From a virus: a stretch of DNA of 64,000 nucleotides. The notes under the pieces were generated by a model. The model made no database searches. It worked only from the letters and a program-made list of their open reading frames with translations, and was not told the DNA's origin. Each line of letters opens with the position of its first letter. The stretch's first letter is position 1. The translations under genes and the position numbers were made by a program. The stretch is from IMG/VR virus record IMGVR_UViG_3300022555_000024, positions 48,340-112,339 of that record. One strand, given 5' to 3'. Below, one piece after another: positions 5,241 to 59,368 of the stretch.

Positions 5241-5317
5241 GTTGTTTATTAAATAAGTCTCCGATATATCATAAATAAGTTTATAAACCTCTCTTTTTAT
5301 AAATATTCTTATGATAA

Positions 5318-6858: not shown

Positions 6859-7694
6859 TGACTCAGTTTTTATTTGAAGGGAAATACTGGGATTTGCTAT
6901 ATGCATATCAATTTATTAAACGTCTTGTTATTCCATTTGATAAAACAGACGCATTTAAACTTGGTATTATAGATAAATATGGCAATAATTTAATTCCTAG
7001 AAAAGATTTCACAACAGATGAGCAAAAAAATGCATATACCTATTTTACAGTGATGGTATTTAACTTAAAGAAACTTTTAGGTAAACTTCCTGCGGGCAAA
7101 ACGATGATGGCTTCTTTAATTGCAGCATTGCTTTTACTTAAAGAGGAAAAGAATAGAACTTTTCATATAGAACAAGAAAATGATGAAAAACTTCTTATAG
7201 AAAAATATAAACAAATATACGATAAAGTTCATTCATCTAATACAAATTTCATACCAATATTAACAGAGATTCATTGTCTCATTAAAGAAGATAAAATGAT
7301 AAATGAAGAAGTAACTGGAGATCTGCCTACGTTACAAATACCAACTTCAACTGTTGGTGCATTAAGAAGAAAACAGAAAAAGGATGCTATGATTAGAAGA
7401 GCTCCAGTTGTTTATGCAATACCAGAAGGCAATGGAGTCGAATCACATGGTGATTTTAAAGTTTTCACTGTTGATACCCCAACATTTATAGAAGCAAAGT
7501 CTGCAAAGAATAGATATAACAAATATGATAAATATGTAGGAAGAGCTGAGTTGGGAGAACAAATTAGATCATATGCAATTAGTAACCCAAACATGCCAGT
7601 TATCTTGAAGTGTGAGACTACAGGTCAAATATGTTTTTTAAAATATGGTAAAGTATCATTAGATTCTATAACAGAATTTAAAAATAAAAAATGA
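6858..7694 (+). CDS. conserved T4-like hypothetical protein
   Basis: YAYQFIKRLVIPFDKTDAFKLGIIDKYGN...NLKKLL N-terminal domain. Confidence 0.7.
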   Translation: MTQFLFEGKYWDLLYAYQFIKRLVIPFDKTDAFKLGIIDKYGNNLIPRKDFTTDEQKNAYTYFTVMVFNLKKLLGKLPAGKTMMASLIAALLLLKEEKNRTFHIEQENDEKLLIEKYKQIYDKVHSSNTNFIPILTEIHCLIKEDKMINEEVTGDLPTLQIPTSTVGALRRKQKKDAMIRRAPVVYAIPEGNGVESHGDFKVFTVDTPTFIEAKSAKNRYNKYDKYVGRAELGEQIRSYAISNPNMPVILKCETTGQICFLKYGKVSLDSITEFKNKK

Positions 7695-8827
7695 AATCAT
7701 TTAAGACATACATAACAGAGAAGAAGGACCACCTGATAGATAAGCTAGCGATTACCGATCACCAAAAGAAGGAACTTAAGGATTTTTTTGCAAAGAAACC
7801 AAACCTAGAGAACAAGATTGACTGGCAAAAGAAGGGTCTTGCCTTTAAGGATTTTGCGGATGTCATGGCCACGACGAAGACCGAAAGAACCAGGATGGTA
7901 AAGAAGCAGGGCATCGCCGGGCTCAAAGATGGCAAGGATTATCTTGAACTAAAGGTACCTGCAGATTTTCCATTCCAGGCCTACATCCCACTTACCTGGG
8001 AAGCTAGCAAACTAATCGCATCAAACAAGATAGGTAAAGGTACTGCCAAGTGGTGCACTGCCCATCATAGCTTATATAAACATTGGTATGAATATGCAGA
8101 TAATCTAGATGTTCTCATTTATCTCATAGGAAAAGATACCAAAATAGCAATGGTACTAGATGGTAATTATATAGATGATGTTTATGATATAGAAGACAAT
8201 ACTATTGAGATTGAAGCCGAATATCGTATTCTAGTGGATATCAACAAATCTTTAATAAATAAAGCCAGAGGTATTATAGAGAAAGGTTTAAAGGACAGAG
8301 TTTGGGATGGAGGCACGTGGCTAGGCGGCACTTGGACTGGTAGATTATGGAAAGGCGGAAACTGGAAAGATGGCAACTGGAAAGATGGAACATGGGAAGC
8401 CGGCAGTTGGGACCATGGAACATGGGAAGGTGGAATTTGGGAAGGCGGACTTTGGAGAAACGGCACCTGGGAAAAGGGTATTTGGCAAAACGGAATTTGG
8501 AAAGATGGCAACTGGAAAGGCGGCACTTGGAAAAACGGTGTCTGGGAAGGCGGAACCTGGCAATACGGGCTTTGGCGAAATGGCATCTGGAAAGGAGGTG
8601 ATTGGTGGGACGGCACTTGGTGGAACGGCACTTGGGAAGCAGGCACCTGGCAAGGCGGTACTTGGCAAGCAGGCACCTGGCAAGGCGGTACCTGGGAAGC
8701 CGGCCTCTGGGAACGCGGAGATTGGTTGGGTGGAACTTGGAAAGGCGGAGATTGGTGGGGTGGTTATGATATAAATGGCAATTATCATGAAATGGGTGAT
8801 TCACCAGATAAATGGAAACTAAAATGA
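7691..8827 (+). CDS. GxWxx-repeat family protein 1 (CTS + WCT domain + Trp pentapeptide repeats)
   Basis: MKSFKTYITE start, GTAKWCTAHH domain, about 30 GxWxx repeats, GGYD..GNYH..GDSPDKWKLK cap. Confidence 0.9.
   Translation: MKSFKTYITEKKDHLIDKLAITDHQKKELKDFFAKKPNLENKIDWQKKGLAFKDFADVMATTKTERTRMVKKQGIAGLKDGKDYLELKVPADFPFQAYIPLTWEASKLIASNKIGKGTAKWCTAHHSLYKHWYEYADNLDVLIYLIGKDTKIAMVLDGNYIDDVYDIEDNTIEIEAEYRILVDINKSLINKARGIIEKGLKDRVWDGGTWLGGTWTGRLWKGGNWKDGNWKDGTWEAGSWDHGTWEGGIWEGGLWRNGTWEKGIWQNGIWKDGNWKGGTWKNGVWEGGTWQYGLWRNGIWKGGDWWDGTWWNGTWEAGTWQGGTWQAGTWQGGTWEAGLWERGDWLGGTWKGGDWWGGYDINGNYHEMGDSPDKWKLK
8303..8763 (+). repeat. 15-nt imperfect tandem coding repeat (GGN-NNN-TGG-NNN-NNN)
   Basis: TGG every 15 nt. 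Confidence 0.9.
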
Positions 8828-9396
8828 AATCATTCAAGACATTTATAATAGAATCAAAAATAAGAAAAAGTTACTTCGATTCATCCATTCCAGTTGTCAT
8901 TCTTTATAAAACAGACGAGGAATATAACATTTGGGAACCGCGTTTTAAGAAATATGGATGGGCAATAGGTATCCTAGATAAGAAAATTATTATAGAAGAT
9001 GGCGAGATTATAAAAAATTTAACAAAAACACAAATCTTATTTGTAGAATCTCATGAATGTTCTCATTTTATACTTGGGGAAAAAGCTACAGAAGTAGAAT
9101 GTGATTGGCTTGCTATAGCAAATCTTTGGAAAAAAGGATTTAAAAACGCAGCAAAATTAGGAATAGACACCTTTGAGGAAAGAAATAATGTACTATTTGA
9201 TACTTCAGATCTTCCGGGTTATGATTCTTGGATAAAAAGAAATAAACATTTGGGCGAATGCTTTATTTTAGAATGCAAAGAAAAAAATATAGAGATATTA
9301 AAAGCTTTAAAGAATTCACAAAAATTTAATATTTACCCATCAAAAAGCACTTTAGAAAGTGCTTGGGAAATATACACAGAATCTATTATACATTAA
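8824..9396 (+). CDS. CTS-bearing putative zinc metallopeptidase
   Basis: MKSFKTFIIE start; HECSH (HExxH) followed by EVECD. Confidence 0.65.
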   Translation: MKSFKTFIIESKIRKSYFDSSIPVVILYKTDEEYNIWEPRFKKYGWAIGILDKKIIIEDGEIIKNLTKTQILFVESHECSHFILGEKATEVECDWLAIANLWKKGFKNAAKLGIDTFEERNNVLFDTSDLPGYDSWIKRNKHLGECFILECKEKNIEILKALKNSQKFNIYPSKSTLESAWEIYTESIIH

Positions 9397-9431
9397 AATT
9401 TTAAATTTATAATACTTTAATTATATTAAAA

Positions 9432-10322
9432 ATGAAAACGTATAAACATTTATTAGAAGAAATATCAATGTTTGAAAATAATGGTGAAGGTGGTGGAACT
9501 TGGAAAGATGGTATTTGGAGAGGTGGCACTTGGTTAGGCGGCACCTGGAAATACGGAATTTGGAAAGATGGAATTTGGAAAGACGGAATTTGGAAAGACG
9601 GAATTTGGAAAGATGGAACATGGAAACGCGGAGTATGGAGTGGCGGTACTTGGAAAGATGGAACTTGGATTAGTGGCACTTGGAAAGGCGGAAATTGGTG
9701 GGACGGTACTTGGAAAGGTGGCATCTGGGAAAATGGTACTTGGAATAAAGGAACTTGGATTAGTGGCACTTGGAAAGGTGGAACATGGTTTGACGGTATC
9801 TGGAACGGCGGAACATGGGAAAAGGGTATTTGGAAAGGTGGAACATTGGAACGCGGTGATTGGTGGGACGGTACTTGGCAAGGTGGTACTTGGAAAGATG
9901 GCACTTGGAAAGGCGGAACCTGGCAATACGGGCTTTGGCGAAATGGCAAATGGAATGGTGGCAAATGGAATGGTGGAACCTGGGAAGGCGGAACCTGGGA
10001 AGGCGGTACCTGGGAAGGCGGAACCTGGGAAAAGGGTATTTGGAAAGGTGGAACATGGGAACGCGGTGATTGGTGGGACGGTACTTGGCAAGGTGGCACT
10101 TGGAAAGGCGGCATCTGGAAAGGTGGAACATGGGAACGCGGTGATTGGTGGGACGGTATCTGGAAAGGCGGCACTTGGGAACGCGGCATCTGGAAAGGAG
10201 GTGATTGGTGGGACGGTACTTGGGAAGGCGGAGATTGGTGGGGTGGTTATGATAAATACGGCCGTTATCATGCAGCAGGCGATTCACCGGATAAATGGAA
10301 ACTAAAAAACAAACTAAAATGA
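9432..10322 (+). CDS. GxWxx-repeat family protein 2 (CTS + about 50 repeats, no WCT domain)
   Basis: MKTYKHLLEE start, nearly pure GxWxx repeat, same GDSPDKWKLK cap. Confidence 0.88.
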   Translation: MKTYKHLLEEISMFENNGEGGGTWKDGIWRGGTWLGGTWKYGIWKDGIWKDGIWKDGIWKDGTWKRGVWSGGTWKDGTWISGTWKGGNWWDGTWKGGIWENGTWNKGTWISGTWKGGTWFDGIWNGGTWEKGIWKGGTLERGDWWDGTWQGGTWKDGTWKGGTWQYGLWRNGKWNGGKWNGGTWEGGTWEGGTWEGGTWEKGIWKGGTWERGDWWDGTWQGGTWKGGIWKGGTWERGDWWDGIWKGGTWERGIWKGGDWWDGTWEGGDWWGGYDKYGRYHAAGDSPDKWKLKNKLK

Positions 10323-10597
10323 AAACGTATAAAGAATTTCGTACAGAAATAGGGTCTAAAACTTGGGACGATATTGCTGAAAATCCTAAATTAGTAGGAC
10401 ATATTCCTAGTAATATAAATAAAGAAATTTTAGATGATCCTAAAGATAGAAAATATTTGAAGTCTATTGGAAAAGCAAGGTTAAAGAAAGCAGAAGATCA
10501 ATGGAAAAAGATTATAGATGATCCAGAAGAAGTAGGTAGTATTCCAAGTAACTATCCTGGGAAATTTAAAGGTGGTAATTTTGCAAACACAATTTGA
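10319..10597 (+). CDS. small CTS-bearing protein with internal duplication
   Basis: MKTYKEFRTE start; W..I...P..VG.IPSN occurs twice. Confidence 0.7.
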   Translation: MKTYKEFRTEIGSKTWDDIAENPKLVGHIPSNINKEILDDPKDRKYLKSIGKARLKKAEDQWKKIIDDPEEVGSIPSNYPGKFKGGNFANTI

Positions 10598-11718
10598 TGA
10601 AATCATTCAAGACATACATAACGGAGAAGAAGGACCATCTTATAGATAAGCTAGCGATTACCGATCACCAGAAGAAGGAATTGAAGTCGTTTTTTGCAAA
10701 GAAGCCAAACCTAGAGAACAAGATTGACTGGCAAAAGAAGGGCCTGGCATTTGCCGATTTTGCAGATGTCATGGCCACGACGAAGACCGAAAGAACTAGG
10801 ATGGTAAAGAAGCAGGGTATTGCCGGGCTCAAAGATGGCAAGGATTATCTTGAATTGAAGTCACCTGCAGATTTTCCATTCCATGCCTACATCCCACTTA
10901 CCTGGGAAGCTAGCAAACTAATCGCATCAAACAAGATAGGTAACGGAACAGCCAAGTGGTGCACAGCACACCACAGCTTATATAAACATTGGTATGAATA
11001 TGCCGAGAATTTTCGTGTTCTCATTTATCTCATAGGAAAAGATACCAAAATAGCAATGGTACTAGATGGTAATTATATAGATGATGTTTATGATATAGAA
11101 GACAATATCACCACGGTTAAACCAGAATACCATACCCTAGTGGATATCAACAAATCTTTAATAAATAAAGCCAGGGGTATTATAGAGAAAGGTTTAAAGG
11201 ACAGAGTTTGGGATGGAGGCACGTGGCTAGGCGGCACTTGGACTGGTAGATTATGGAAAGATGGAACATGGTATCGCGGAACCTGGGAAGCCGGAATTTG
11301 GAAAGATGGAATTTGGAAAGACGGAATTTGGAAAGACGGAATTTGGAAAGATGGAACATGGGAAGCCGGCCTCTGGGAACGCGGAGATTGGTTGGGTGGA
11401 ACTTGGAAAGGCGGAGTCTGGGAAGATGGTGTTTGGGCCAGAGGTAGATGGGAAAGTGGTATTTGGCGAGGCGGCACTTGGGAAGACGGTCATTGGTATA
11501 GTGGCACTTGGATTAGTGGCACTTGGTTGGACGGCACTTGGGACGGCGGAACCTGGCGAAATGGCAACTGGAAAGGAGGTGATTGGTGGGACGGCACTTG
11601 GGAACGCGGTACCTGGAGAGGTGGCACTTGGTTAGGCGGCACCTGGTATGGTGGTTATGACATAGATGGCAATTATCATGTAGCGGGCGATTCACCAGAT
11701 AAATGGAAACTAAAATGA
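10597..11718 (+). CDS. GxWxx-repeat family protein 3
   Basis: Near-identical N-domain to 7691..8827; about 30 repeats in a different order. Confidence 0.9.
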   Translation: MKSFKTYITEKKDHLIDKLAITDHQKKELKSFFAKKPNLENKIDWQKKGLAFADFADVMATTKTERTRMVKKQGIAGLKDGKDYLELKSPADFPFHAYIPLTWEASKLIASNKIGNGTAKWCTAHHSLYKHWYEYAENFRVLIYLIGKDTKIAMVLDGNYIDDVYDIEDNITTVKPEYHTLVDINKSLINKARGIIEKGLKDRVWDGGTWLGGTWTGRLWKDGTWYRGTWEAGIWKDGIWKDGIWKDGIWKDGTWEAGLWERGDWLGGTWKGGVWEDGVWARGRWESGIWRGGTWEDGHWYSGTWISGTWLDGTWDGGTWRNGNWKGGDWWDGTWERGTWRGGTWLGGTWYGGYDIDGNYHVAGDSPDKWKLK

Positions 11719-12403
11719 AATCATTCAAGACGTGCATAACGGAGAAGAAGGATCACCTGATAGATAAATTGAAAATGACTGATTTTGAAAAAGCACAATT
11801 AAAAGACTTTTTCAAAAGGAAACCAAACCTAGAAAACAAGATTGACTGGCAAAAGAAAGATCTGGCCTTTAAGGATTTTGCGGATGTCATGTCCACAACG
11901 AAGACCGAAAGAACCAGGGCAGTCAGGAAGTCTGGCATCACAGGTCTCAAGAAAGGCATAGACTATCTAGAGGTCAAAACTCCAGCAGATTCGCCGTTCC
12001 AGGCCTACATCCCACTTACCTGGAAGCTAGCAAACTAATTGCATCCAACAAGATAGGACCCTGTACAGGTGAATGGTGCATATCTCATCATAGTGAAAAC
12101 AATGATTGGAATGTATATACAAAAGAAGGAGATGTATTTATTATGCTTATAGGACAAAGAACAAAATTAGCAATAAAAATAAATAAAAAAGATGTATTTC
12201 ATGTCTGGGATAGTGATGATAATCACTTAATTAAACATAATAGAGTTTGGGACTCAAACATATTTGGTGATAGTGCTGGTCATCATTTAGATATAGATAA
12301 ATTAATATCGGATAATAAGAATATTATAGATAATGCAAGAAAAATTGTAACACCTCAGATTAGAACAACTCCGATAAGAATTACACCTTATTTTGAGATA
12401 TAA
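11715..12403 (+). pseudogene. WCT-domain family member without Trp repeats; 1-nt frameshift at about 12021
   Basis: acctggaagct versus acctgggaagct in paralogues; adding one G reads TWEASKLIASNKIGPCTGEWCISHH and joins ORF 12143..12403; may be a sequencing error. Confidence 0.75.
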
Positions 12404-12692
12404 CGAAGATAGTACTATCAATGAAGTAGATTATCCACGTGCAATAGAAGAATGTATAGATCTCGGCTTGGGTTGGAGATTACCTACATATGATGAACTT
12501 AATAAATTGCGTTTGATATATCAAAATACCGATATTGTTGATAATTTTGATTTGCATCCATATGGTTTGTATTGGTCTTCGTCTTATGATAATAAAAGAC
12601 AATCTGTTAGATGTATTATAATGCGGGGTGTAGTTGAATGGTCTAATATAACAATGGGTTTAGCTAGAGTAAGAGCAGTAAGAAGTGTCTAA
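12393..12692 (+). CDS. DUF1566/Lcl-C-like domain protein
   Basis: GWRLPTYDEL...YWSSS...ARVRAVR. Confidence 0.7.
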   Translation: MRYNEDSTINEVDYPRAIEECIDLGLGWRLPTYDELNKLRLIYQNTDIVDNFDLHPYGLYWSSSYDNKRQSVRCIIMRGVVEWSNITMGLARVRAVRSV

Positions 12693-12720
12693 ATCACTAA
12701 TTTTTTGTTATATTTTTATT

Positions 12721-13764
12721 ATGAATTACATTGATCAAAAATTTATTTCTACTCTATCTTCACGTTTAGAAGGATTTCATAGAGTTGGCGCGAATGTGAA
12801 TTTTCGATGTCCAGTATGTGGGGACTCAAAGGAAAATAAATCAAAACGAAGAGGTTGGCTTCTAGCAGGAAAATCTCATCCCGTATTTTTCTGTCATAAT
12901 TGCCCAGTATCTATGTCTTTTAGCAACTTTATAAAATTTATAGATCCAACTCTTTATAGGGAATATATTTTTGAGCTTATGCAGGAGAAAAATCAATCTT
13001 CTCCAGAAAAAACAGTACAAAAAGTAAAGGTAGAAATAGAAGAAATACCAGAAGTAAATGATTATATAAAAGATTTTTTAGATGCATTTACACCAATTTT
13101 ATCTTTACAAGAAGATCATCCAGCAAGAACGTATCTTCTTGATAGAAAAATACCAGAAGATAAACTAAAATATTTATATTTTGCAGAAAATATGCAAGAT
13201 GTACATAAGATTGATAAATTAGGGAAGTATAAAAAAAGAATCTTAGATAAAGATTCTAGAATTATTCTTCCAATATGGGGTAAAAATTCTCTTATAGGAA
13301 TATCATGTAGATCATTAGATCCTTGTTCTTCAAAAAGATATCTAATCTATAAGTTTGAGGAAGAAATGCCTCTTGTTTTCGGACTTTATGATATTAATGG
13401 GAACTTGATAATAGATCCAAAGAAACCTATTATTGTAGTGGAAGGAGCTATAGATTCTCTTTTTCTAGACAATGGTATTTCTGTAAATGGGGCGGACTTA
13501 AAGAGAGTTATGAAAATGCTTTCGGGTTTGCAATTAATTTTTAGTCCAGATAATGAACCCCGCAATAAACAAATTTGTAAAGTGTATAAGCAAATAATTC
13601 AATCTAATAACAATATTGTCATTTTTCCAGATTTTATAGAACAGAAGGACATTAATGATATGGTAAAGAATATGGGACTTGATAAAGTAAAAGAATTGAT
13701 AAATAGTAGTATATATAAAGGACCTGCAAGTATGTTAAGGTTCAATTCATGGAAGAAATGTTAA
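12721..13764 (+). CDS. 61: DNA primase (T4 gp61-like)
   Basis: NFRCPVCGDS...FFCHNC zinc finger, VEGAIDSLFL TOPRIM, DNEPRN, KDINDM. Confidence 0.93.
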   Translation: MNYIDQKFISTLSSRLEGFHRVGANVNFRCPVCGDSKENKSKRRGWLLAGKSHPVFFCHNCPVSMSFSNFIKFIDPTLYREYIFELMQEKNQSSPEKTVQKVKVEIEEIPEVNDYIKDFLDAFTPILSLQEDHPARTYLLDRKIPEDKLKYLYFAENMQDVHKIDKLGKYKKRILDKDSRIILPIWGKNSLIGISCRSLDPCSSKRYLIYKFEEEMPLVFGLYDINGNLIIDPKKPIIVVEGAIDSLFLDNGISVNGADLKRVMKMLSGLQLIFSPDNEPRNKQICKVYKQIIQSNNNIVIFPDFIEQKDINDMVKNMGLDKVKELINSSIYKGPASMLRFNSWKKC

Positions 13765-13774
13765 TAACATAAAA

Positions 13775-13993
13775 ATGTCAATAATAACACCACCCGAAGA
13801 ACAACAAATTAGGATGCAGATTTGTAAAACCTGTTCTAATTTTAATCCAATAGGCAAGCGATGTAAACTTTGCGGATGTATAATGCCAGTAAAAAGTAGA
13901 TTGGCTTCAGCTACATGCAAAATAGGTCTTTGGAAAAATCCTGAAGTAGTAGAAAATGCGAAGGAAAGTATAAAAAGAGATTATATGGGTTAA
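13775..13993 (+). CDS. small Cys-rich protein
   Basis: CKTC...CKLCGC.M.VK...C..G.W. Confidence 0.7.
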   Translation: MSIITPPEEQQIRMQICKTCSNFNPIGKRCKLCGCIMPVKSRLASATCKIGLWKNPEVVENAKESIKRDYMG

Positions 13994-14520
13994 GTACATC
14001 TTGCTATAAAGAATGCATCTATCAAATCAGAGTAAGGAGACTTCCCGATTTTATTTTCTTTGGGAACTAATTTAATTTTAGTTTGTTCTTCAAATGCCGT
14101 ATTCATAATGATTTTGTTAGCGTTTCCTTTACCAGAAGCAAATTTTTTTATAGTGCCAGGTGATAGTATATTATATTCTATATGATTTTTATGTAACAAA
14201 TACTTTAAGATTCCAGTATGTTCTGCTATAGTGAAAACTCTACCAGATGCAGCAAACGCATACCCTTCTAAATTTACACTTTTAATATTATATTCAATCA
14301 GTTTATTAATAAAAAACATAGCAATAGTTTCAAATCTTGTTATATCTGTTTCATAATCTATTGGAAGTTCCTCTACAGTTATATTTGAAAATGTTCTAAG
14401 ATGATCAGAATCTTTTGATTCCTTTGTCATAGTAAAGAGTTTACATTCTTCAAAAGAACCATTACCAATACATAATGCCGGTCCACTTATTGAATAATCA
14501 ATTCCTGCAGAAATATACAT
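13990..14520 (-). CDS. RuvC-like Holliday junction resolvase/nuclease
   Basis: GIDYS, EGYAF, IKKFASGKGNANK, SDLIDAFF; the only clear minus-strand gene. Confidence 0.8.
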   Translation of the reverse strand: MYISAGIDYSISGPALCIGNGSFEECKLFTMTKESKDSDHLRTFSNITVEELPIDYETDITRFETIAMFFINKLIEYNIKSVNLEGYAFAASGRVFTIAEHTGILKYLLHKNHIEYNILSPGTIKKFASGKGNANKIIMNTAFEEQTKIKLVPKENKIGKSPYSDLIDAFFIARCT

Positions 14521-14563
14521 AAATATTTTTAATTTTTTATTATTTATAACAAAAATCAATATT

Positions 14564-14974
14564 ATGTTCGAAGAACCAGCAAAATTTAAACTAGTATATG
14601 AAGTTCCCAGTGTAGAAAGCATATATTCATTTATAGTTAAAACTTCTTCTTATAATGTATATTTCAAACATATAGGGAATAATGTATATACTTCTAATTT
14701 TTTATTATATAGTCATAATGGTGAAATATTGATTACTATGGATAAGATAGATGTCGGCTTAGATGTTTCTATAGTTGTGTTTATAACATTCATAAATATA
14801 ATGAAAGATTTTGCTTCTAGAATAAACCCTAGCGCAATAGAATTTAGAGCAAATGATGCAGATAGTGAGAAACGAGCGTCTTTATATAAAACATTAACAA
14901 AGAAATTTATACCAGATGAGTATGAATTTTCTACAGTTTACATAATAACACCAAAAAATAAAATACATGAATAA
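14564..14974 (+). CDS. paralogue of 62891/63328 family
   Basis: VFITF..I.KDF.....P..I.F.A...R.SLY....KKFIP..YE shared with 63328..63771. Confidence 0.7.
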   Translation: MFEEPAKFKLVYEVPSVESIYSFIVKTSSYNVYFKHIGNNVYTSNFLLYSHNGEILITMDKIDVGLDVSIVVFITFINIMKDFASRINPSAIEFRANDADSEKRASLYKTLTKKFIPDEYEFSTVYIITPKNKIHE

Positions 14975-15932
14975 GTTATCAAAAAATGAAGTCAATGCAA
15001 CAGCAAGAGGCGGTTCTGAGTTACAAGCAGAGTATTTACAAAAATATGTTGCAAAAGAACTTCTAGATCAATTTCAAATAATAATAACAAGAGTTAGAGA
15101 ACTCGAAGACAAACCACGTTTACTCTGGTGTAAGGAAGTTGTTTCTGAACCAGAATCTCAGAGGTTAAAAGAACCTGCATTCCGTGATAATTTTAGATAT
15201 ATCATACACAATTCTGATTATCAGAGAAATCAGTTTAGAGATTATCTTGGAGTTCCATTTGAAAAATCACACGTCTTGAAAAATGCAATAGAACCATCGA
15301 ATATAGACATTTCTAAAAAATTTTTTCCAGAGAAGGTAAAACTTATTTATTCTTCTACTCCACAAAGGGGCCTTAATATTTTATATTCTGTTTTTGACGA
15401 GCTTTATAAGGATGACAAAAACATAGAACTAAATGTGTATTCTTCTTTTGATATCTATGGTCATCATGAAAGAAATAAACCATTTTTGCCACTGTTTGAT
15501 CAATGTAAATCTCATCCAGGGATAAATTATTATGGTTCAGTTTCTCATGAAGAATTGAAAGATGCTACAAAAGAAAATCACATTTTAGCATACCCTTCAA
15601 TCTGGGAAGAAAGTAGTTGCACTACTATCATGGAAAACATGAGTGCAGGAAATCTTATAGTGACTAATAACTTAGGAGCATTGCCCGAAACCAGTGCAGG
15701 TTTCTCCTTAATGTATGATTATCAATCTAACCTTAATCTACACGCACAGAATTTCTATAATACGTTAAAAGAAGGTATTGACAGTATAAGGGGCAACGGG
15801 ATAGGAAAAAAAATAAATGGAATGAGTATTACTAGCCTTTTAGAAGAACAAAAAAAATACGCAGACATTTTCTATAATTGGGAATTCAGAGGGCAACAAT
15901 GGACAGAATTCTTAACTAAATTGTTAAAATGA
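14967..15932 (+). CDS. GT-B (GT4-like) glycosyltransferase
   Basis: GGSE, YSSTPQRGL, YPSIWEESSC...E.MSAG...GALPET. Confidence 0.85.
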   Translation: MNKLSKNEVNATARGGSELQAEYLQKYVAKELLDQFQIIITRVRELEDKPRLLWCKEVVSEPESQRLKEPAFRDNFRYIIHNSDYQRNQFRDYLGVPFEKSHVLKNAIEPSNIDISKKFFPEKVKLIYSSTPQRGLNILYSVFDELYKDDKNIELNVYSSFDIYGHHERNKPFLPLFDQCKSHPGINYYGSVSHEELKDATKENHILAYPSIWEESSCTTIMENMSAGNLIVTNNLGALPETSAGFSLMYDYQSNLNLHAQNFYNTLKEGIDSIRGNGIGKKINGMSITSLLEEQKKYADIFYNWEFRGQQWTEFLTKLLK

Positions 15933-16192
15933 AAATATACAGCACACTTATAACGGAACTTTATAATACACCCAGCCAGTTACAATATACATATAAATCA
16001 GAAAAGGCTGTTAGTACAAAAGATACACACCCCGACTCTAGAACATCTTTGTATATAAAAATGGCAAAAAGTTTACCCCTGATAACTATGAACTTAGTAT
16101 CGAAGATGAGGGTTGGAGAAGTATATTTATTTTTACAAGAGTTAAAAAATAGTTTCATAGTTAGTAGAAAATGTTTATATTATTCTATCTGA
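15929..16192 (+). CDS. truncated/internally deleted member of the ITELF family
   Basis: MKIYSTLITELY start, RTSLYIKMAK motif. Confidence 0.45.
   Translation: MKIYSTLITELYNTPSQLQYTYKSEKAVSTKDTHPDSRTSLYIKMAKSLPLITMNLVSKMRVGEVYLFLQELKNSFIVSRKCLYYSI
16152..16181 (+). promoter_or_regulatory. putative early promoter GTTTCATAGTTA...TATATT
   Basis: TTTCAT-17nt-TATATT; recurs at 28705, 35473, 38513 upstream of gene starts. Confidence 0.7.
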
Positions 16193-16529
16193 AAAACTAA
16201 ACAAAAGGAACTACACATTGAAAAACACCACATTTGCAGGATTTTACAATTATCAGCAGAACGATCTTCCTATGACAAAGATGATCTCCAATGAGGAAAA
16301 TTTCAAAGATGTCGTCTCTGCACTTCAGGAACACTCCTATGAGCATCAAAAACAGTTTTCTAATTATCACATATCGGAATATGTTGATATGCCTAATGGT
16401 AGCCGTGAGAAAGTAAAACAGTTTGATCTTGGTTCTTACAGGTTCTGATAAAATAATTAAAAATATTTTTTTTGTTAATGAAAAATAATTATATTGTATT
16501 ATCTGAATAACTAAAATTATATTTATATC

Positions 16530-17693
16530 ATGGAAATACAGGCATTTGAACAGCAATTGATTGAGAAATTTGGCGGCGAAACAGTAACTAACAAAATGCT
16601 TCGTGAAGCATTTGGAAAAACGAACAAAAATTGGTATAATTATTTGCGTGCATATCGGCCAGAAACTGTTGTTGCGCGTGGATCATTTAGTATTCCAATG
16701 GAATTTGATATGGTTATTCCAACAACCCGTCAGAAAAAGGTTACTGTAACAAAAACAAAGCCAACCGCAAATTTATCACCAGAGATCTGTAGTACTGATG
16801 TTGCAGAAACTACATTCGGAGTCATTCCTGATATAGATCCTCTTTATGTACCATTCGGGTTTCACGCCTCTCTCAAAAAAATATTGAAGAAAAACTTTTT
16901 TTATCCAATATTTATCACCGGGCTTTCAGGAAACGGTAAAACAAAAAGTGTAGAGCAAGCTTGTGCAGAAATCTCAAGAAAACTGTATCGTGTTAATATT
17001 ACAGTTGAGACAGATGAAGATGATCTTATTGGTGGATTTAGACTTTTTGACGGAAATACCGTGTTTGAGCATGGACCTGTTATTAATGCAATGAAAGATG
17101 GAGCAGTGTTGCTGCTAGACGAATGTGATCTGGCTAGTTCTAAAATTATGTGTCTGCAGTCTATTCTTGAAGGAGGTTCGTATTATATTAAGAAAACAGG
17201 TGAAACTGTGAAGCCAGCACAGGGATTCACCATTGTAGCTACCGCAAATACCAAAGGACGCGGTTCTGAAGATGGTCGATTTGTTGGAACAAACATACTT
17301 AACGAAGCTTTCTTGGAGAGGTTTGTTATTACAGTTGAACAGGAATATCCTTCATCTATTGTAGAGAAGAATATTTTGACAAAACTCTTTACGAAATATG
17401 ATATTGATGACGATGATTTTGCAGACAAACTTACGAAGTGGGCAAAATGCATTCGTGATAGTTTCCTCAATGGATCAATGGATGAAATTATTACTACACG
17501 TCGTTTAGTACATATCGCAAAAACTTATAGCATTTTTTCGAATAAATTGGAATCTATTAAACTATGTCTTGCTAGATTCGATGAACAGTCTAAAATAGCA
17601 TTTTTAGACGCTTATACAAAAATTGATGCTACTGTAACAGAAGAAGAACCTGCGACAGAGAAATGTGAAGAAACAATCGAAACGCCTTTCTAA
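16530..17693 (+). CDS. MoxR/CobS-like AAA+ ATPase
   Basis: GLSGNGKT, DEDDLIGG, LLLDE, TANTKGRGS, NEAFLERF. Confidence 0.88.
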   Translation: MEIQAFEQQLIEKFGGETVTNKMLREAFGKTNKNWYNYLRAYRPETVVARGSFSIPMEFDMVIPTTRQKKVTVTKTKPTANLSPEICSTDVAETTFGVIPDIDPLYVPFGFHASLKKILKKNFFYPIFITGLSGNGKTKSVEQACAEISRKLYRVNITVETDEDDLIGGFRLFDGNTVFEHGPVINAMKDGAVLLLDECDLASSKIMCLQSILEGGSYYIKKTGETVKPAQGFTIVATANTKGRGSEDGRFVGTNILNEAFLERFVITVEQEYPSSIVEKNILTKLFTKYDIDDDDFADKLTKWAKCIRDSFLNGSMDEIITTRRLVHIAKTYSIFSNKLESIKLCLARFDEQSKIAFLDAYTKIDATVTEEEPATEKCEETIETPF

Positions 17694-17728
17694 TAATATC
17701 TATACATACTATATAGAAAAGGGTTCGT

Positions 17729-17791
17729 TTTCTTGTGGCGTAATTGGTTAACGCTTTTGTAAATATGCAGGTTCGAATCCTGCCAAGAAAA
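17729..17791 (+). ncRNA. tRNA-like RNA lacking a normal anticodon arm
   Basis: Acceptor TTTCTTG/CAAGAAA, D arm GCGT-AATTGGTTA-ACGC, T arm GCAGG-TTCGAAT-CCTGC; only 12 nt between D and T arms. Confidence 0.7.
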
Positions 17792-17900
17792 CAAAAATAT
17801 TTTAAATGATATAATTGAAAAGGCATTTTTGCAAAGTCTTTATAATATATAGGCGCGAAACATACGCCTAGGTTTAAGTATTAAGTATAAAACTTCATAC

Positions 17901-18152
17901 ATGACAAATTCTGTTATAATAGAACAAGATTTTATAGTAACAAATCCTACTATTAATAGAAAATATCATATATCATGGGCTTCTAGAAAAGGTATGGTAT
18001 GGATATTATTAGGATTTAATGATGAAAGAGCATATTTAATGACTCCTAAAACAAAAAAGTCTATAAGTTGTAGATTGAACGAATTAAGAGAAATTAATTA
18101 TTATGCTCAAATAAACGCGAGTAAAAGAGAAAAGAATACTTCCAACAAATAA
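17901..18152 (+). CDS. hypothetical protein
   Basis: ORF track, same strand as neighbours. Confidence 0.55.
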   Translation: MTNSVIIEQDFIVTNPTINRKYHISWASRKGMVWILLGFNDERAYLMTPKTKKSISCRLNELREINYYAQINASKREKNTSNK

Positions 18153-18357
18153 TTTTATAAACTAGTAAAAAGATAAAGTTATTCCATATGAATTGTAGTT
18201 ATAATAAAATTCAAGATCCGGTTTTTAAAATAGGGGATAAAGTTATTCTTATTAGTAATGAATATGAATATGAGATAATAAATATTACTTATGATTGGCA
18301 AGGATACAGATACATTTTATTGGGTGGTTTGCATGTATATGAATCTCATTTAAAAAA

Positions 18358-18430
18358 GGCCTTATAGCTCAACTGGTTAGAGCAGTAGACTGTCGATCTA
18401 CAGGTTTGGAGTTCGATTCTCCTAAGGTCG
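18358..18430 (+). tRNA. tRNA-Asp (GTC)
   Basis: GGCCTTA/TAAGGTC-G; GCTC/GAGC D stem; GTAGA-CTGTCGA-TCTAC anticodon arm; 4-bp T stem. Confidence 0.85.
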
Positions 18431-18585
18431 CTAATAAATCCCTCCATCAAACATCTCAATTATCGAGAGAGTTAATGTTATTCAAAATTTTATAATTTCA
18501 AGTTTATTCAAGTAATAAAATTATTTTTACTTTTAAAGAAAAATGGTTATATTATACTATATGAATAACTAAACAATATTATATT

Positions 18586-20844
18586 ATGTCTATAGCACTT
18601 AGAGAAACAAAATCACTATTGGCTAAACTTTTGGCTGGTGAGAATATTTCTATTGAACATCGTAAAGTTCGTACTGCAGCATTTGATGTTAAAAACCGCG
18701 TATTGATTCTTCCCATTTACAAAAAAGATATTGAACCATCAGTGTATGATGTGTTTGTTGCACATGAAGTTGGTCATGCTCTTTTCACTCCTTTAGACGA
18801 GAATATAGTAAAAAATAGAGCGCTATTTCAGTATGTTAATATGGTAGAAGACATCAGAATAGAAAAACTTATGAAAAATAAGTACGAAGGTCTTACTAAA
18901 GCGTTTTTTAAAGGATATTCGTACTTGGCCGCAGATGATTTTTTTGGTATAGCCAACGAAGATATTTCAACATTGAGTCTTTTTGATAGACTCAATCTTC
19001 ATTCGAAAATTTCTACACCTGGTTATTTTAATGAAATAGAACAGGGTTTTGCTGATCGTTCTAAAAAACTTCTTACTTTTTCTGAAGTTGTTCAATTAGC
19101 AAAGGAAATTAAGGAATATGATAATAGACCAGACGAAAAAGAATCAGATGATTCTGAGTCAGAGGTTACTGAAGTAGAAAATGGAGAAGATGGCGAAAAT
19201 ACTAATGGTTCTAAGGATAAAAACAAAGATAAGAAGAAATCTGACAAAAAGGAAAAGTCCGAAGAAGGAGACAGTGAAGGTGAAGGAGACAGTGAAGGTG
19301 AAGGAGACAGTGAAGGAGACGACGAAGGCGATAGCGAAGGCGATAGCGAAGGTGACGACGAAGGAGACGACGAAGGCGATAGCGAAGGAGACGACGACGA
19401 TTCTGGAAAAACATCAAATAGAAAACCACGAAATAGAGAAAGAGTTACTGCAGACAATGCAAAGAATAAATTGAACGATTTTATTGATAACAATGCTACA
19501 GAATTAAAATATGTAAAAATTTCGAATTTTAATATAACTTCATTCATAGACAGTCATGATGAAATTCTAAATGAACTGAATAAAGTTTTTGAAGAAACTC
19601 CTCTTAATATAGATAATTTTGCTCTGTTTAAAACGCAAAATCAGAATGTAGTTAATTATCTTCATAAAGAATTTGAAATGAAGAAAAATGCAGAACAGTA
19701 TAAGAGAGAACAATTTGCTACATCAGGTTCTATTGACTGTAATTTGGTGCATAAATATAAATATGATGATAATATATTCAAAAGAATAGCAACAGTTCCT
19801 AATGGAAAATCTCACGGTCTTGTTATGCTATTGGATTTTTCTGGATCTATGTCTCATATAATCTCAGATACCATAAAACAAATCATCACTTTGGTATTAT
19901 TTTGTAAGAGAGCTGGAATTGCATTCGAGGTATACGCATTTAGAGATAGTAGCGATACCCTAAACGAATTTGATAAATATCAAAATCTTAAGGAAAATGA
20001 AGTTGTTTTGTGCTCAGGGTTTAAACTTTTAAATTTTATTTCAAGTAAACAAAGTGGACTAAAATTTACACAAGCACTTGCTAATCTATGGAGAATTGGA
20101 TTAATTGTAGGAAGAGAAGCTTGGGCTTGGCAGCAAGATAATTTTAAAAGTAAAGTTAGAATTTCTGGAAAATATACTCTTTCTGGAACACCTTTAAACT
20201 CTGCTTTAATAGCAAGCCCGAAATTGATAGAAAAATTTCGTCATGATCATAAATCACAGGTTGTTCATTTGGTAGTTCTTACAGATGGTCAAGCTACAGA
20301 TGATATGAGAGTTGTGAAAGGATTACCCGGCAGTTATTATGGTTCAAAGTATACAACGTCATACATTTCAAACGCTATTATTAAACATGGGCATAAAAAC
20401 TATCCTACATTAATAGAAATGCCGCATGGTAATAGAGACAGTAGAGACTCTATTACTAATGCCTTAATATTATACGTAAAAGAAATTTCTAATGTTAGAG
20501 TTGTTGGTTTTTCTCTAATATCAAGATTGAGTGAATTTTCCAGCGTTCATTCATATTCTAAAATAGAAAGTAGCAATAACTATTACGAAGAGCATCAGAA
20601 ATTGTCTAAAGATGGAAGTATAGCACTTACGGGATGCGCGTATAATGAATTATATGTTATTAGAACTGATAAAAGTAATTTTAGTTTTGATACTGAAAGC
20701 CCAAATTTTACACCAAATAACATGAAAGATGCAATTAAAGATGTAAAAGGAATGTTTTCGAGACAAGCGAATTCAATAAAGAAGCAGAGAGTTGTTTTAA
20801 ATAAATTTATTACAATGATCTCCAATCCTATTCTAAACTTTTAA
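18586..20844 (+). CDS. CobT-like metallopeptidase-vWA protein, partner of the AAA ATPase
   Basis: HEVGH, acidic linker, DFSGSM MIDAS, GTPL, LTDG. Confidence 0.85.
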   Translation: MSIALRETKSLLAKLLAGENISIEHRKVRTAAFDVKNRVLILPIYKKDIEPSVYDVFVAHEVGHALFTPLDENIVKNRALFQYVNMVEDIRIEKLMKNKYEGLTKAFFKGYSYLAADDFFGIANEDISTLSLFDRLNLHSKISTPGYFNEIEQGFADRSKKLLTFSEVVQLAKEIKEYDNRPDEKESDDSESEVTEVENGEDGENTNGSKDKNKDKKKSDKKEKSEEGDSEGEGDSEGEGDSEGDDEGDSEGDSEGDDEGDDEGDSEGDDDDSGKTSNRKPRNRERVTADNAKNKLNDFIDNNATELKYVKISNFNITSFIDSHDEILNELNKVFEETPLNIDNFALFKTQNQNVVNYLHKEFEMKKNAEQYKREQFATSGSIDCNLVHKYKYDDNIFKRIATVPNGKSHGLVMLLDFSGSMSHIISDTIKQIITLVLFCKRAGIAFEVYAFRDSSDTLNEFDKYQNLKENEVVLCSGFKLLNFISSKQSGLKFTQALANLWRIGLIVGREAWAWQQDNFKSKVRISGKYTLSGTPLNSALIASPKLIEKFRHDHKSQVVHLVVLTDGQATDDMRVVKGLPGSYYGSKYTTSYISNAIIKHGHKNYPTLIEMPHGNRDSRDSITNALILYVKEISNVRVVGFSLISRLSEFSSVHSYSKIESSNNYYEEHQKLSKDGSIALTGCAYNELYVIRTDKSNFSFDTESPNFTPNNMKDAIKDVKGMFSRQANSIKKQRVVLNKFITMISNPILNF
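19266..19400 (+). repeat. acidic coding repeat (GDSEGE/GDDEG)n
   Basis: ggagacagtgaaggtgaa and related tandem units. Confidence 0.8.
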
Positions 20845-21576
20845 AAAAGGAGTATGTGATAAATCCATTTTACGAATTCACCTTAACAACTACAGGTGCC
20901 CCTCTCTTTATAGATGTAACTCAGATAGGGGCATTTTATCGTTATATTCCATCTCAAATCCCTGAGGATGAAGATGATGTAGAAACTACAATAGTAAGGA
21001 TAGATGAAGAATGTTCATGGTCTATAGTAGAATCTCCAAAATACATAAACGATTGTATTAATGAATTAATAACAGCAAACAATTACGGTTTTAAAAACGA
21101 TTAAAAACAAATAAAACAAAATGGTATCATTATTTTATAATCAGGATTATAAGGTTACGTGGTGGTCTACAACTCCGCTAGGTGAATTTAGACTCGTTTG
21201 TTGGAGTGGAATATGGAATATATTCTTAAATAAAGTTTTTTTTGATGATGCTTACTCTTTTAATGAGGGTTTGGCTAAAATAGAAGCCCACATTAAAGAA
21301 AATTGTCCCAGAGAAAATGTTGAACAATGACATTATCAGAATGCAAACATGGCCAATGGTATGAAATTGTAGATGGATTAGGTTTTATAAAAAATGAAAC
21401 TACCATCTTATATGAATATTTACGAGAAGATAATACTCATTTTGTTGTAGGGGAAAGCCCCTATGATGAAATGGGAATTGTTGTTTCTATGGAAAACGCA
21501 AAGAAAATAATCGTTTCAGAACTCTTCTTTTAAAGTCACGCTTTTATTTTTGATTTATTTTTCTATATTAATGTAT

Positions 21577-22011
21577 ATGGAAAATAAATCAAAAGTTGGA
21601 AAAATTGGTGAACTCTTGTGGATTAGAGAATTTGGTGGAAAGCAATTAGATGATGCTTTTGATCAAGAATGTGATGTTTTTTTGGATGACAAAAAAATAG
21701 AAATTAAAACACAAGTTAGATTTTACAAAGAAAATGCCTTCACTGTAGATAAAAATCAACTTCAAAAATGCCTAGGCTGGCCAAATCTTAAAAAGGGATT
21801 CGGTGCTCAGTTTCTACATTTCGTTGAATACGATTTGTGCACTCCTATTATTACATTTTGGGAATGTTCAGATAGATTCGATTATAGGGAATTAAGTAAT
21901 GGGAGAATAGCTTGGGATATTAGTAAAATGACAAAAATCAAGGAAATACAAGATGTCGAATCATCAATGCAGTTGCAACAAAACACGAGCTCAAGATATA
22001 GAGCAAACTGA
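21577..22011 (+). CDS. PD-(D/E)xK nuclease-like protein
   Basis: GKIGE...CDV...IEIKT. Confidence 0.5.
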   Translation: MENKSKVGKIGELLWIREFGGKQLDDAFDQECDVFLDDKKIEIKTQVRFYKENAFTVDKNQLQKCLGWPNLKKGFGAQFLHFVEYDLCTPIITFWECSDRFDYRELSNGRIAWDISKMTKIKEIQDVESSMQLQQNTSSRYRAN

Positions 22012-22339
22012 ATCTATTAAAGTACTTTTAGAAGCTTTAGATATTCAGCGTAAAAAATCTACAGATTATCAAAATCCAAATTCTAGTATACATCAAGCAG
22101 ATTATTATCCCAGAGGAGTATCTTCCATATTAGATATAATTCAAGGTAAAGCACTTCGCATCAGATCTGTTATAGAAGCTATGGAAAATGATGTTAATTA
22201 TACTCCAAATTTCGAGTCTATAGAAGATTCATGTATAGATTTAATAAATTATGCATCTTTTGCGGTATCTTATTGTAGAGGAAAAATGGATGGTCAGAAA
22301 GCTGACAAAGATTTTTTGAATAGAAAAATAAAAAAATAA
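21953..22339 (+). CDS. nucleotide-modification-associated domain 1 (DUF1599/MazG-like) protein
   Basis: KKSTDY...DYYPRG...SIEDSCIDLINYASF; adjacent to gp42-like gene. Confidence 0.7.
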   Translation: MSNHQCSCNKTRAQDIEQTESIKVLLEALDIQRKKSTDYQNPNSSIHQADYYPRGVSSILDIIQGKALRIRSVIEAMENDVNYTPNFESIEDSCIDLINYASFAVSYCRGKMDGQKADKDFLNRKIKK

Positions 22340-57228: not shown

Positions 57229-59368
57229 TATACATAATTTTAAGTCTAATTGCAATCGTATTATTTCTTTTTTTAGTTCCTGATTTATTATCATATAGGT
57301 TTTATGGTTATTCCAAGGAAAAAATTGAAGAATTTTCTAAAAAAGATCTTTCTAACTATAACATTTATCTTTCTTCGAATAATTCTAATAAATTTTGGAT
57401 TTTATCCGATGCAGAATGCGAAGATTTTATTAGTGATAATGGAGGTTTTGCTAGCAAATATCACTCTCATAAATATGGTTTAATCCCTAGATCACATCCT
57501 ATGACAAAAAAGATTGATGAAATTTTAGCCGATATAAGGAAACAACCTGGAACTCCTTTAACATCAATTTTAAATGAGCAGAATTCCATAGAATAAGTTA
57601 AATTTATTATCTGATTTTTTTGATAAAGAGACTGGAAAATGATAGTGATGAAAAAAATAATCATAACAAATGAGACTGAGCTTAGTGATATAAAATCCTT
57701 AGAACTTGCTTCTTACTCTATAAAAAGCAGTTCATCTGTTGTACATAATTATGGTGGCTCTTTGCATGGAATTAGAGTGGACACCGAGTTCAATCAGCGT
57801 AGAAAAACTATAAAATGCAGGATTAGCAAAGAAGAAGTTGATTAACACAATACCAAACAATTAACATCAATGACACCTGAACAATTCAAAAAAGCAGTGT
57901 GGACAGAAAAGACACAAGTAACGCGCCATTCAGTACCGGGAAAGTTTTTTCCGTTAAATGTGGATTTTGAGCGTTATGAAGTGTTGCTTGACGATGGTGA
58001 CATCGTGAGACCAGAACACATTGAATCCATCATAAACCAACCTGATTACGATGCAATAATTGCTGACCTAAAAGAAGATTTATCTGAAGTATTGCAAGAT
58101 GTGATATGCTTTGCACCTGAATGCACATCATCAAAAGAGTATGCAATCAAACGATTAAAGGAACTTGAAGATGAAAGTGCACCACAAACCGGTATCGGGG
58201 GGAAATTATAAATAAGTAACAAGAAAAGATACAAAAGAGTTAAATTAGTAATAAACATAATTATGAAGTCGAATTTAAAGACCTCTGCTGAATGGAATGA
58301 TCTTTTTAGAGATTATTTTACAATAGAAAAAGAAGAGGCGTATGGTTGGAACAAAAGAAATTTCAATTATGCATGGAATAAAGAAAAGATACATATTAAT
58401 GAATTTCTTAGTCGAATGAAAAATTCTACTTGTTATTGGAAGAAAAGTTGGAATGAAGTTTCAAACGTGATAGAATACGTTAGAGAATCCTATAATTTAA
58501 GATAAAACACACAGATGGAAAAATTAGAATATTTTTTTGAAGATCATCAACACCCAGATGAAAAATTTGATATGCCCGATTTTGATAATTATACACCAAC
58601 ACCCTATTCGTCATTTGATTTTTCTATAGCATCTGTTAGAGTAGAAACTGACGATGAAGATTTTGGATTTTGTATAGAAATACTTCCTATAGAATTTAAT
58701 TCTGATAAATTTTATTATGGAGGTTCTCTTCTTTCTATAAGAAAATATTATGATGCACCTATTCAATTTGACATTATTTATTTGGGTCAACTTTTTAATA
58801 AAATCAAAAGAAAGTTATATAAACAGGTAACTCCATTTTAACTATGTCTGCAGATAATAGAATATTAGTAGTTAGGTTTAAAGATTGTACAAAATTCAAA
58901 TGCATTGGTGGAGATAAATTGTATGATCATTTTGAACCTAATATGGAAGGAATAAATTATGCATATCTTTATATAGAATTAAAATCTGAATATTCATTTG
59001 AAGATTACCGCAAAGCTTTAGAACTAGCAGGAGTTTTGAATGATGAATTAGAAACTGAATATGGAGTAAACACCTTAGAATTTGATAATACATGGGATGA
59101 GTTTAAACGTTTAGCGGTCGATAAAGCAACACGAGAATTGTTGTGGTTACAAGGAGAAATTGGGGAGAGAAGTTCTGCATGGATATGGGATCAAACACAA
59201 ATTTCAGATTTATCTATGCTTGTTCAAAATGCATATTAATTACTATTTAAGTAAATTAGTTTCTTAAATGATGAAAAGGCAACTACAGAAATGTGGTTGC
59301 CTTTTCCAATTAGAATGTTTTTTATTATAAATAGTAAAAACAATATCAATAAAATTAAAATTAAATAA

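Follow-up and report, generated by a model that had tools for sequence, protein, structure and literature searches.

A 64,000-nucleotide stretch of viral DNA (hereafter the window), which constitutes the final 64 kb of the IMG/VR record IMGVR_UViG_3300022555_000024, carries two arrays of genes for a family of paralogous proteins. Most members are assembled from a leader of 10 residues, a conserved domain of approximately 190 amino acids (aa) that we call the N-domain, a run of Trp-centred pentapeptide units of the form GxWxx, and a C-terminal cap. The source contig is linear, spans 112,339 bp with a GC content of 31.6%, and has a CheckV completeness of 62%. Among its genes are those for a T4-type portal (phrog_213), a gp21-type prohead protease (phrog_207, with a match to Peptidase_S77/PF03420 at 127 bits), the scaffold protein gp22 (phrog_237) and the major capsid protein gp23 (phrog_138). 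Given these T4-type head genes, and given that the closest cultured relatives of the scaffold protein (approximately 40-43% identity) are found in marine cyanomyophages, we consider the source to be an uncultured marine T4-like myophage.

Gene content of the two arrays

Five repeat-bearing genes were proposed for the window in an initial annotation, and all five are intact open reading frames (ORFs) that begin, as proposed, at positions 7691, 9432, 10597, 60427 and 61755 (Table 1). A genome-wide search added a sixth repeat gene. Two further copies, at 11715 and 63768, had been listed as related to the family, and this relationship is evident in both. However, the copy at 11715 is not the intact domain-only gene that it was thought to be, because one G has been lost near position 12030 (TGGGAA to TGGAA) and the remainder of the coding sequence continues in another frame. 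This frameshift reflects either a pseudogene or a sequencing error. The copy at 63768 is interrupted by a premature TAG codon. The expected combination of the leader MKSFKTYITE with a G.AKWCTAHH motif is present in the four N-domain copies, whereas the repeat-only protein encoded at 9432 starts differently.

Both arrays also contain genes whose products share little more than the leader with the repeat family. The HExxH protein of array 1 yields a weak match to Peptidase_M48 (E 0.032, short of the cut-off), and may be a packaged metallopeptidase. The paralogous pair of array 2 has the sequence ITELFD in common after the leader, and one of the two proteins gives a weak DUF6934 match (E 7.7e-4), again short of the cut-off.

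Each array is preceded by a box, TATAAATA, that resembles a T4-type late promoter. The gene at 5318 downstream of the first box opens an overlapping operon that holds array 1. The same box is found directly upstream of the gp21 and gp22 genes and of other structural genes of the contig. The count of TATAAATA over the whole window is no higher than expected by chance, and thus only its intergenic placement (intergenic copies on the + strand, 16/26) carries information.

Table 1. Members of the repeat family, associated leader-bearing genes and promoter-like boxes. Positions refer to the window unless indicated otherwise.
Feature	Position	Strand	Characteristics
Late-promoter-like box (T4-type), TATAAATA	5298-5305	+	12 nt ahead of gene 5318
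Family copy 1	7691-8827	+	378 aa; leader MKSFKTYITE (7691-7720), N-domain (aa 11-202), 31 GxWxx units, cap
HExxH protein (HECSH)	8824-9396	+	190 aa; leader MKSFKTFIIE; unrelated cargo candidate interleaved in array 1
Family copy 2, repeat-only	9432-10322	+	296 aa; leader MKTYKHLLEE, 52 units, cap
92-aa protein	10319-10597	+	Leader MKTYKEFRTE
Family copy 3	10597-11718	+	373 aa; leader, N-domain, 31 units, cap
Family copy 4	11715-12403	+	Leader MKSFKTCITE; diverged N-domain without repeats; frameshifted
Late-promoter-like box, TATAAATA	59326-59333	+	35 nt ahead of the first gene of array 2
phrog_4687-related protein (function unknown)	59369-60430	+	Leader MISFKSFITE; C-terminal part matches; opens array 2
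Family copy 5	60427-61758	+	443 aa; leader, N-domain, 45 units including an internal triplicated block, cap
Family copy 6	61755-62894	+	379 aa; leader, N-domain, 32 units, cap
Two paralogous proteins	62891-63771	+	146-147 aa; leaders MKSFKTYMTE and MKYYKEFITE; phrog_6387/16075 (function unknown)
Family copy 7, partial	63768-64000	+	Leader and start of N-domain; in-frame TAG at codon 45; truncated by contig end
Sixth repeat gene	Contig 20075-20731 (outside the window)		Among small genes between gp21 and gp22

The Trp-pentapeptide repeat and its predicted fold

The repeat regions of the six proteins can be divided into consecutive fives in perfect register and without any insertion or deletion, yielding 213 Trp-centred units when the DKWKL unit of each cap is included. 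Trp is lost in a single unit, which reads GTLER in the product of 9432. Gly occupies the first position of the unit (position 0) 198 times out of 213 (93%), position 1 is T in 51% and otherwise I or V, position 3 is mainly K or E and position 4 mainly G or D, resulting in the consensus G-T-W-K-G. In the repeat-only copy, Trp accounts for 56 of the 286 residues that follow the leader. Arrays range from approximately 24 to 52 units, which is roughly the 30-50 initially estimated, and all six genes encode the cap GGYD..G.YH..GDSPDKW.

Faulty assembly can be excluded as the origin of the repeats, because at the DNA level the similarity between the 15-nt units is no more than 63-91% and because metagenomic proteins with 93-100% identity to the 7691 product occur in separate entries, the two largest of which are each represented on 5-6 contigs. 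We therefore regard the repeats as genuine. The repeat family has no match in Pfam (E up to 1), in NCBIfam or among annotated PHROGs, and a sequence search of the PDB with the repeat returned nothing at E up to 10. These searches agree with the earlier impression that the repeat does not belong to a described family.

The repeat is confidently predicted to form a beta-solenoid, as had been proposed from the sequence. An AlphaFold2 model computed with 51 homologues as input has a predicted local distance difference test (pLDDT) score of 90 overall and 95-98 in the repeat. The modelled fold is a right-handed, three-sided beta-solenoid with 15 residues, or three GxWxx units, per coil, wherein strands of 2-3 residues cover positions 1 to 3 in every unit and the DSSP assignment has a period of 15. 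Exhaustive structural comparison places right-handed three-sided beta-helices first, with Ag43b at the top (Z 15.0, root-mean-square deviation (rmsd) 2.4 A over 167 residues) and the adhesins and tailspikes TibA and CBA120 TSP4 among the other neighbours. Pentapeptide-repeat proteins score lower (2j8k, Z 10.7; EfsQnr, 10.2; AlbG, 9.6), left-handed hexapeptide helices align only at an rmsd of approximately 11 A, and a Foldseek search of the PDB with the whole model gave only E values above 0.06.

A periodicity test that does not depend on the model fits three units per coil: in 197 arrays (4,080 units), the residues at the variable positions agree most strongly between units that are three apart (lag 3, z 4.5), whereas a lag of four gives z -1.6. 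Three considerations weigh against placing full reliance on the predicted fold. The lag-3 signal could partly stem from recent 45-nt duplications, the ESM Atlas model of the 9432 product has a pLDDT of 0.71, and AlphaFold2 is prone to over-confidence on repeats.

Given the invariant Gly and Trp, and the charged or polar character of positions 1, 3 and 4, we infer that the Trp residues stack in the core of the solenoid and that Gly occupies its corners, with positions 1, 3 and 4 exposed at the surface. The conserved cap probably closes the rod. This rod would be approximately 5-9 nm long and, by likeness to other small beta-solenoids, about as thin as DNA.

Several known repeat classes share some of these characteristics. 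Pentapeptide repeat proteins (A(D/N)LXX; Rfr), exemplified by Qnr, MfpA, AlbG and Np275/276, also have a five-residue period and form right-handed beta-solenoids, with a big hydrophobic residue central in the unit and a small residue two positions earlier. However, the central residue in those proteins is Leu or Phe and the small one Ala, rather than Trp and Gly; each coil comprises four units (20 residues) rather than the three units (15 residues) predicted here; the surface of the present solenoids is non-acidic; and no hidden Markov model (HMM) of that family matches them. The beta-helices of Ag43, TibA and pertactin come closest to the model in structure, but they have approximately 19-20 residues per coil, lack any sequence relationship to the repeat, and belong to secreted bacterial adhesins, and a shared fold is no proof of a shared function.

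The cultured T4-like Pseudomonas phage PspYZU05 has the same kind of repeat (G-x-W-x-S/G) in its protein gp054, which is labelled as MORN or 'PIP5K-like', and the nearest neighbours of the family in the ESM Atlas are clusters bearing the automatic name 'PIP5K-like'. This name looks like an annotation artefact. Pfam searches of the window proteins (E up to 1) and of gp054 (E up to 0.01) detected neither MORN nor any other family, and we rejected the MORN assignment (PF02493), since a MORN unit has approximately 23 residues and the period here is strictly five. An ice-binding Thr ladder is likewise unlikely, as the unit has T-W-K instead of a T-x-T motif and the gene context offers no support.

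The N-domain, its partners and the diversification of the family

The N-domain has an alpha/beta architecture, and its AlphaFold2 model alone reaches a pLDDT of 89. Comparison with PDB structures revealed no credible neighbour (best Z 4.7, which is at noise level; Foldseek E above 0.4), and the weak structural matches to GNAT-like proteins and arylamine N-acetyltransferase lack credibility. A PcfJ-like identity is not supported either: there are weak leads in fold and features, but the PcfJ HMM (PF14284) matches nothing on the contig (E up to 10) and was not reported by the Pfam scans. In the BFVD database, the neighbours of the N-domain are uncharacterized phage proteins, four of which come from Salicola phage SCTP-2 and three from one uncultured myovirus, together with a weak fold neighbour annotated as a 'structural protein' of phage PA5oct (E 1.9e-3). 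The only PHROG match of the family, phrog_28193, corresponds to the N-domain and has no assigned function. Because Asp83, Cys122 and Lys151 are invariant, the domain may be an enzyme.

An exhaustive phmmer search with the N-domain recovered 528 cluster representatives at E up to 0.001, including 313 at E up to 1e-10, and in these homologues the domain is nearly always located at the extreme N-terminus. Arrays of GxWxx units are present in just 18 of the 150 best matches. Among 98 other N-domain proteins, the recognizable C-terminal partners are almost all repeat scaffolds, namely the leucine-rich repeat (LRR) families LRR_5 (21), LRR_8 (15) and LRR_4 (8), followed by DUF285 (5) and FNIP (2). 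The modules therefore assort even more widely than was evident from the window, and the notion that the solenoids are binders gains support from these fusions. The arrangement of a constant N-domain with a swappable solenoid lends support to target recognition as the role of the Trp solenoid, and suggests a family design in which a constant domain is combined with exchangeable solenoid-type binders. On the same contig, a gene at contig positions 3593-4645 encodes a distant paralogue in which the leader MLSFKSFIIE and a KWCT domain (GTKWCTA; phrog_28193) are joined to yet another kind of C-terminus, which looks helical.

Sequence diversity within the family is probably generated by unequal recombination and gene conversion rather than by a dedicated mutator. 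Identical DNA stretches as long as 141 nt recur out of register in different paralogues, the longest of them at differing unit positions in 10597 and 60427, and the N-domains are also mosaic among paralogues. Near-identical metagenomic variants differ chiefly in N-domain patches that copy a paralogue. A search for RVT_1 found no reverse transcriptase on the 112-kb contig (approximately 62% complete), and on this basis we provisionally set aside a diversity-generating retroelement. The variation resembles the shuffling of blocks. The term 'hypervariable', as applied to the repeats in the initial annotation, is borne out only as regards mosaicism among paralogues and copy-number differences.

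Repeats of the GxWxx type are found in hundreds of metagenomic phage proteins and in viral clusters of the ESM Atlas. They are also present in bacterial-type proteins of 1,400-2,000 aa, where they are mixed with G-x-F units and are not preceded by a leader. In proteins with both repeat types (e.g. P0134), the canonical Pentapeptide_4 region sits apart from the GxWxx runs. Two other metagenome proteins, P0115 and P0137, carry GxWxx arrays fused to a nuclease domain of the PLD-like type (PLDc_2, E 5e-21) and to a protein with a match for domain I of the tail-sheath protein Gp18. A tblastn search of a phage collection gave only repeat-level matches (PspYZU05 and huge uncultured phages) and, for the N-domain, one match in Salicola phage SCTP-2 (E 0.2), while a locus search of viral contigs with a single family protein found no relative. 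The literature that we searched on this repeat, on capsid-targeting sequences in cyanophages and on LRR virion proteins contained nothing relevant.

A complete, unrelated-looking phage genome of 139,904 bp with terminal repeats has six tandem N-domain paralogues and two further repeat-bearing ORFs, making eight in total. This array (8676-18243) starts approximately 2.9 kb downstream of a distantly T4-like major capsid gene. The leader of its copies is MIKIFKNLNLLE-KKDH, their cap (KIWNP..KY.YS.KNPYECEWSLSYYKR) differs from that of the window proteins, and one of the extra repeat-bearing ORFs has another N-terminus.

Leader sequences and the proposed role of the family

In phage T4, the capsid-targeting sequence (CTS) MKTYQEFIAE is taken off by a single cut (PMC8442874), the N-terminal 10 residues of IPIII are enough for packaging (PMC9026906), and cleavage of Alt occurs at ITE-6 (PMC5694885). 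On the contig examined here, a strict leader pattern identifies 11 ORFs, all located within the window in two clusters. Looser forms are present in approximately nine further genes of the head-gene region, including the protease gene and genes between it and that for gp22, bringing the total to about 20. These leaders end in I/L-x-E. Two of them, MKYYKEFITE and MKTYKEFRTE, are the same as the T4 CTS at seven of ten residues, whereas MKSFKTYITE shares with it the pattern of M-K, aromatic residue and I-x-E. An ITE motif ending at residue 10 is found in every N-domain copy, and thus the family leader ends like the cleavage motif of T4 Alt.

The leader is not confined to the repeat family, but is also carried by unrelated proteins, including the HExxH protein, the phrog_4687 and phrog_6387 members and the 92-aa protein. 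Its codons vary at synonymous sites (TCA/AGT, ACA/ACG/ACT and GAG/GAA), and therefore selection maintains the peptide rather than the DNA. The Glu and its L-x-E context are at least 90% conserved among 98 diverse family members. Leaders of this kind are present in 24-48 of 108 distant phage homologues, compared with none of 61 long bacterial-type repeat proteins. The likeness to the T4 CTS that was noted at the outset is well founded, and a gp21-type protease and gp22 are encoded on the same contig. The sequence strongly suggests that the leader targets the head, that it carries a cleavage motif of the gp21 type and that the genes are expressed late, and prohead targeting appears to be the best reading.

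Two features of the head-gene region also involve such leaders. The prohead protease (contig 15928-17256) has an additional N-terminal region of approximately 200 aa with an Ala/Gly-rich hydrophobic stretch. This region starts with the CTS-like leader MKTFNEFRKEIE, and a copy of TATAAATA lies 4 nt upstream of the gene. Between the gp21 and gp22 genes (contig 17259-22020), approximately eight small genes open with CTS-like leaders such as MSYKSLLEE, MKTYKSLLEE, MSYKIFRE, MSYKNFRD and MKTYKEFRE, and two of the encoded proteins have hydrophobic segments. These genes appear to encode an enlarged repertoire of proteins of the prohead core.

With modest confidence, we favour the interpretation that the family comprises paralogous late genes for proteins that are targeted to the prohead core, as are the T4 internal proteins and Alt. 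According to this proposal, the CTS-like leader of approximately 10 residues would carry each protein into the scaffolding core, where the gp21-type protease would cleave after the Glu of I-T-E. The mature protein would then remain in the head with the DNA and be ejected into the host at infection. Because the predicted rod is about as thin as DNA, it could lie among the packed DNA and exit via the portal and tail without unfolding. The solenoid would serve as the exchangeable target-recognition part, as suggested by the fusions of the N-domain to LRR, DUF285 and FNIP repeats, and the multicopy arrays shuffled by recombination would supply a diversified set of early-acting proteins for host takeover or counter-defence. 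A role in the head is also supported by the presence of one repeat copy inside the head-core gene cluster, and of the related array near the capsid gene of the 139,904-bp phage.

To our knowledge, CTS-tagged internal proteins are the only well-understood route by which myophages deliver ready-made proteins with their DNA, and T4 IPI* exemplifies the ability of such cargo to act as anti-restriction weaponry. In common with T4 IPI, IPII, IPIII and Alt, the proteins described here have a leader of approximately 10 residues with the pattern M-K-x-aromatic-x-x-aromatic-I-x-E, ending in the I/L-x-E of a gp21 cut site. In both phages, gp21 and gp22 are encoded, the genes concerned lie dispersed outside the structural module, are polymorphic and do not belong to the core set, and otherwise unrelated cargo shares the leader only. 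They differ in that the putative cargo here consists of a 190-aa N-domain with a Trp solenoid, in that T4 has only a handful of leader genes compared with approximately 20 on this 112-kb fragment, and in that packaging is deduced in the present case from the genes. The small, highly basic character of T4 cargo holds for IPI-III but not for Alt, and hence the family departs from the internal proteins rather than from CTS cargo in general.

There are a number of points that weigh against prohead targeting and delivery. The N-domain family itself opens with a conserved L-x-E-KKDH sequence, and for this reason the conservation of the leader may partly reflect the domain rather than targeting. Triplets of the form I/L-W-E, which resemble protease sites, are numerous inside the repeats. 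The mature proteins (286-433 aa, 40-48 kDa, isoelectric point (pI) 6.5-9.0) exceed T4 IPI-III in size and have a less basic character. The 139,904-bp relative with its six copies gave no match to the Peptidase_S77 HMM. Lastly, the case for packaging is an argument by sequence analogy, and the binder role is deduced from domain swapping.

A more elaborate form of the proposal, which we put forward only tentatively, is that the family constitutes a head-delivered polymorphic effector system. In such a system, the constant N-domain (possibly a new enzyme) would be equipped with a T4-type leader and with swappable LRR, DUF285, FNIP or all-Trp-core solenoid modules to create a recombining anti-defence panel, and the Trp solenoid would represent a new structural class of beta-helix. 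Injected effectors of the IpaH/SspH type also combine a constant domain with an LRR specificity module, and we mention them, together with polymorphic toxin architectures, as a lead only. The parallels are that an LRR or solenoid module which can be exchanged is attached to a constant domain containing an invariant Cys, that the genes are multicopy and recombine, and that the proteins are delivered into a target cell, which is presumed for the phage proteins. However, the proteins are unrelated in sequence and fold, their domains come in the opposite order, the vehicle would be a phage head instead of a secretion system, and the enzymatic role is putative for the phage proteins.

If head delivery proves to be true, marine T4-like phages spend approximately a tenth of their genes on such cargo, and a family of more than 500 clusters is built from a constant domain and a solenoid in the manner of polymorphic effectors. 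The Trp-pentapeptide repeat, which is currently unnamed or mislabelled as 'PIP5K-like', would be a distinct solenoid class that merits a Pfam entry and structure determination. Many 'hypothetical' proteins of viral metagenomes would gain a testable role, and a thin, rigid scaffold filled with Trp could serve protein design.

The leader data could also be explained if the proteins act solely in assembly, like the T4 core proteins gp67, gp68 and gp22, and thus help to build or size the head before the protease cuts them up and the pieces are expelled ahead of DNA packaging. One family copy is indeed situated among the small leader-bearing genes between gp21 and gp22, the many I/L-W-E triplets in the repeats fit the I/L-x-E cleavage pattern, and in T4 the core proteins are broken into fragments by proteolysis (PMC5694885). 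We judge this explanation unlikely, given that a solenoid predicted to be tightly folded (pLDDT 95-98) should resist internal cleavage, and that genes which are multicopy, mosaic, partly pseudogenized and LRR-swapped are not expected to encode essential assembly proteins.

Another possibility to which we assign a low probability is that the proteins are cytoplasmic and never enter the virion, in which case the shared N-terminus would be either the usual gene start of the family or a translation-initiation cassette that has spread by recombination. Identical 25-mers upstream of the genes at three junctions would fit such a cassette, L-x-E-KKDH belongs to the family-wide N-domain, and the arrays are located outside the structural module. 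However, the leaders of unrelated genes vary synonymously and yet retain the peptide, they agree at seven of ten positions with the T4 CTS, which was defined by experiment, and late-promoter-like boxes precede the arrays.

It is also rather improbable that the proteins are external virion components, such as receptor-binding fibres, adhesins or head decorations, that are anchored by the N-domain and bind the host surface with a variable solenoid or LRR. Receptor-binding proteins of phages usually pair a conserved anchor at the N-terminus with a variable binder at the C-terminus, adhesins and tailspikes (Ag43, TibA and CBA120 TSP4) are structural neighbours of the solenoid, LRRs of the BspA type are common partners of the N-domain, and the PA5oct 'structural protein' is a weak fold neighbour of the same domain. 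In conflict with this explanation, the T4-type leader with its ITE ending is common to small unrelated proteins and to head-core genes, the arrays lie outside the tail and baseplate module, and the outer head proteins of T4 are added after maturation and are made without such leaders (PMC9026906).

Finally, although the five-residue unit, the thinness of the predicted rod and the presence of pentapeptide-repeat proteins among the structural neighbours (Z 9.6-10.7) recall the DNA mimics Qnr and MfpA and would fit a packaged mimic that poses as B-DNA to inhibit host nucleases or topoisomerases, this role, which had been suggested initially, is very improbable, because the solenoids are near neutral (net charge of repeat and cap -5 to +6, pI 4.9-9.2), no Pentapeptide HMM matches them, the model has three rather than four units per coil, and the Pentapeptide_4 region is separate from the GxWxx runs in long proteins that bear both.

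The window also encodes two RNAs. These are a transfer-messenger RNA called by ARAGORN at positions 706-1072 on the + strand, with the tag peptide ADTFEYRMAA, and a tRNA-Asp at positions 18358-18431.

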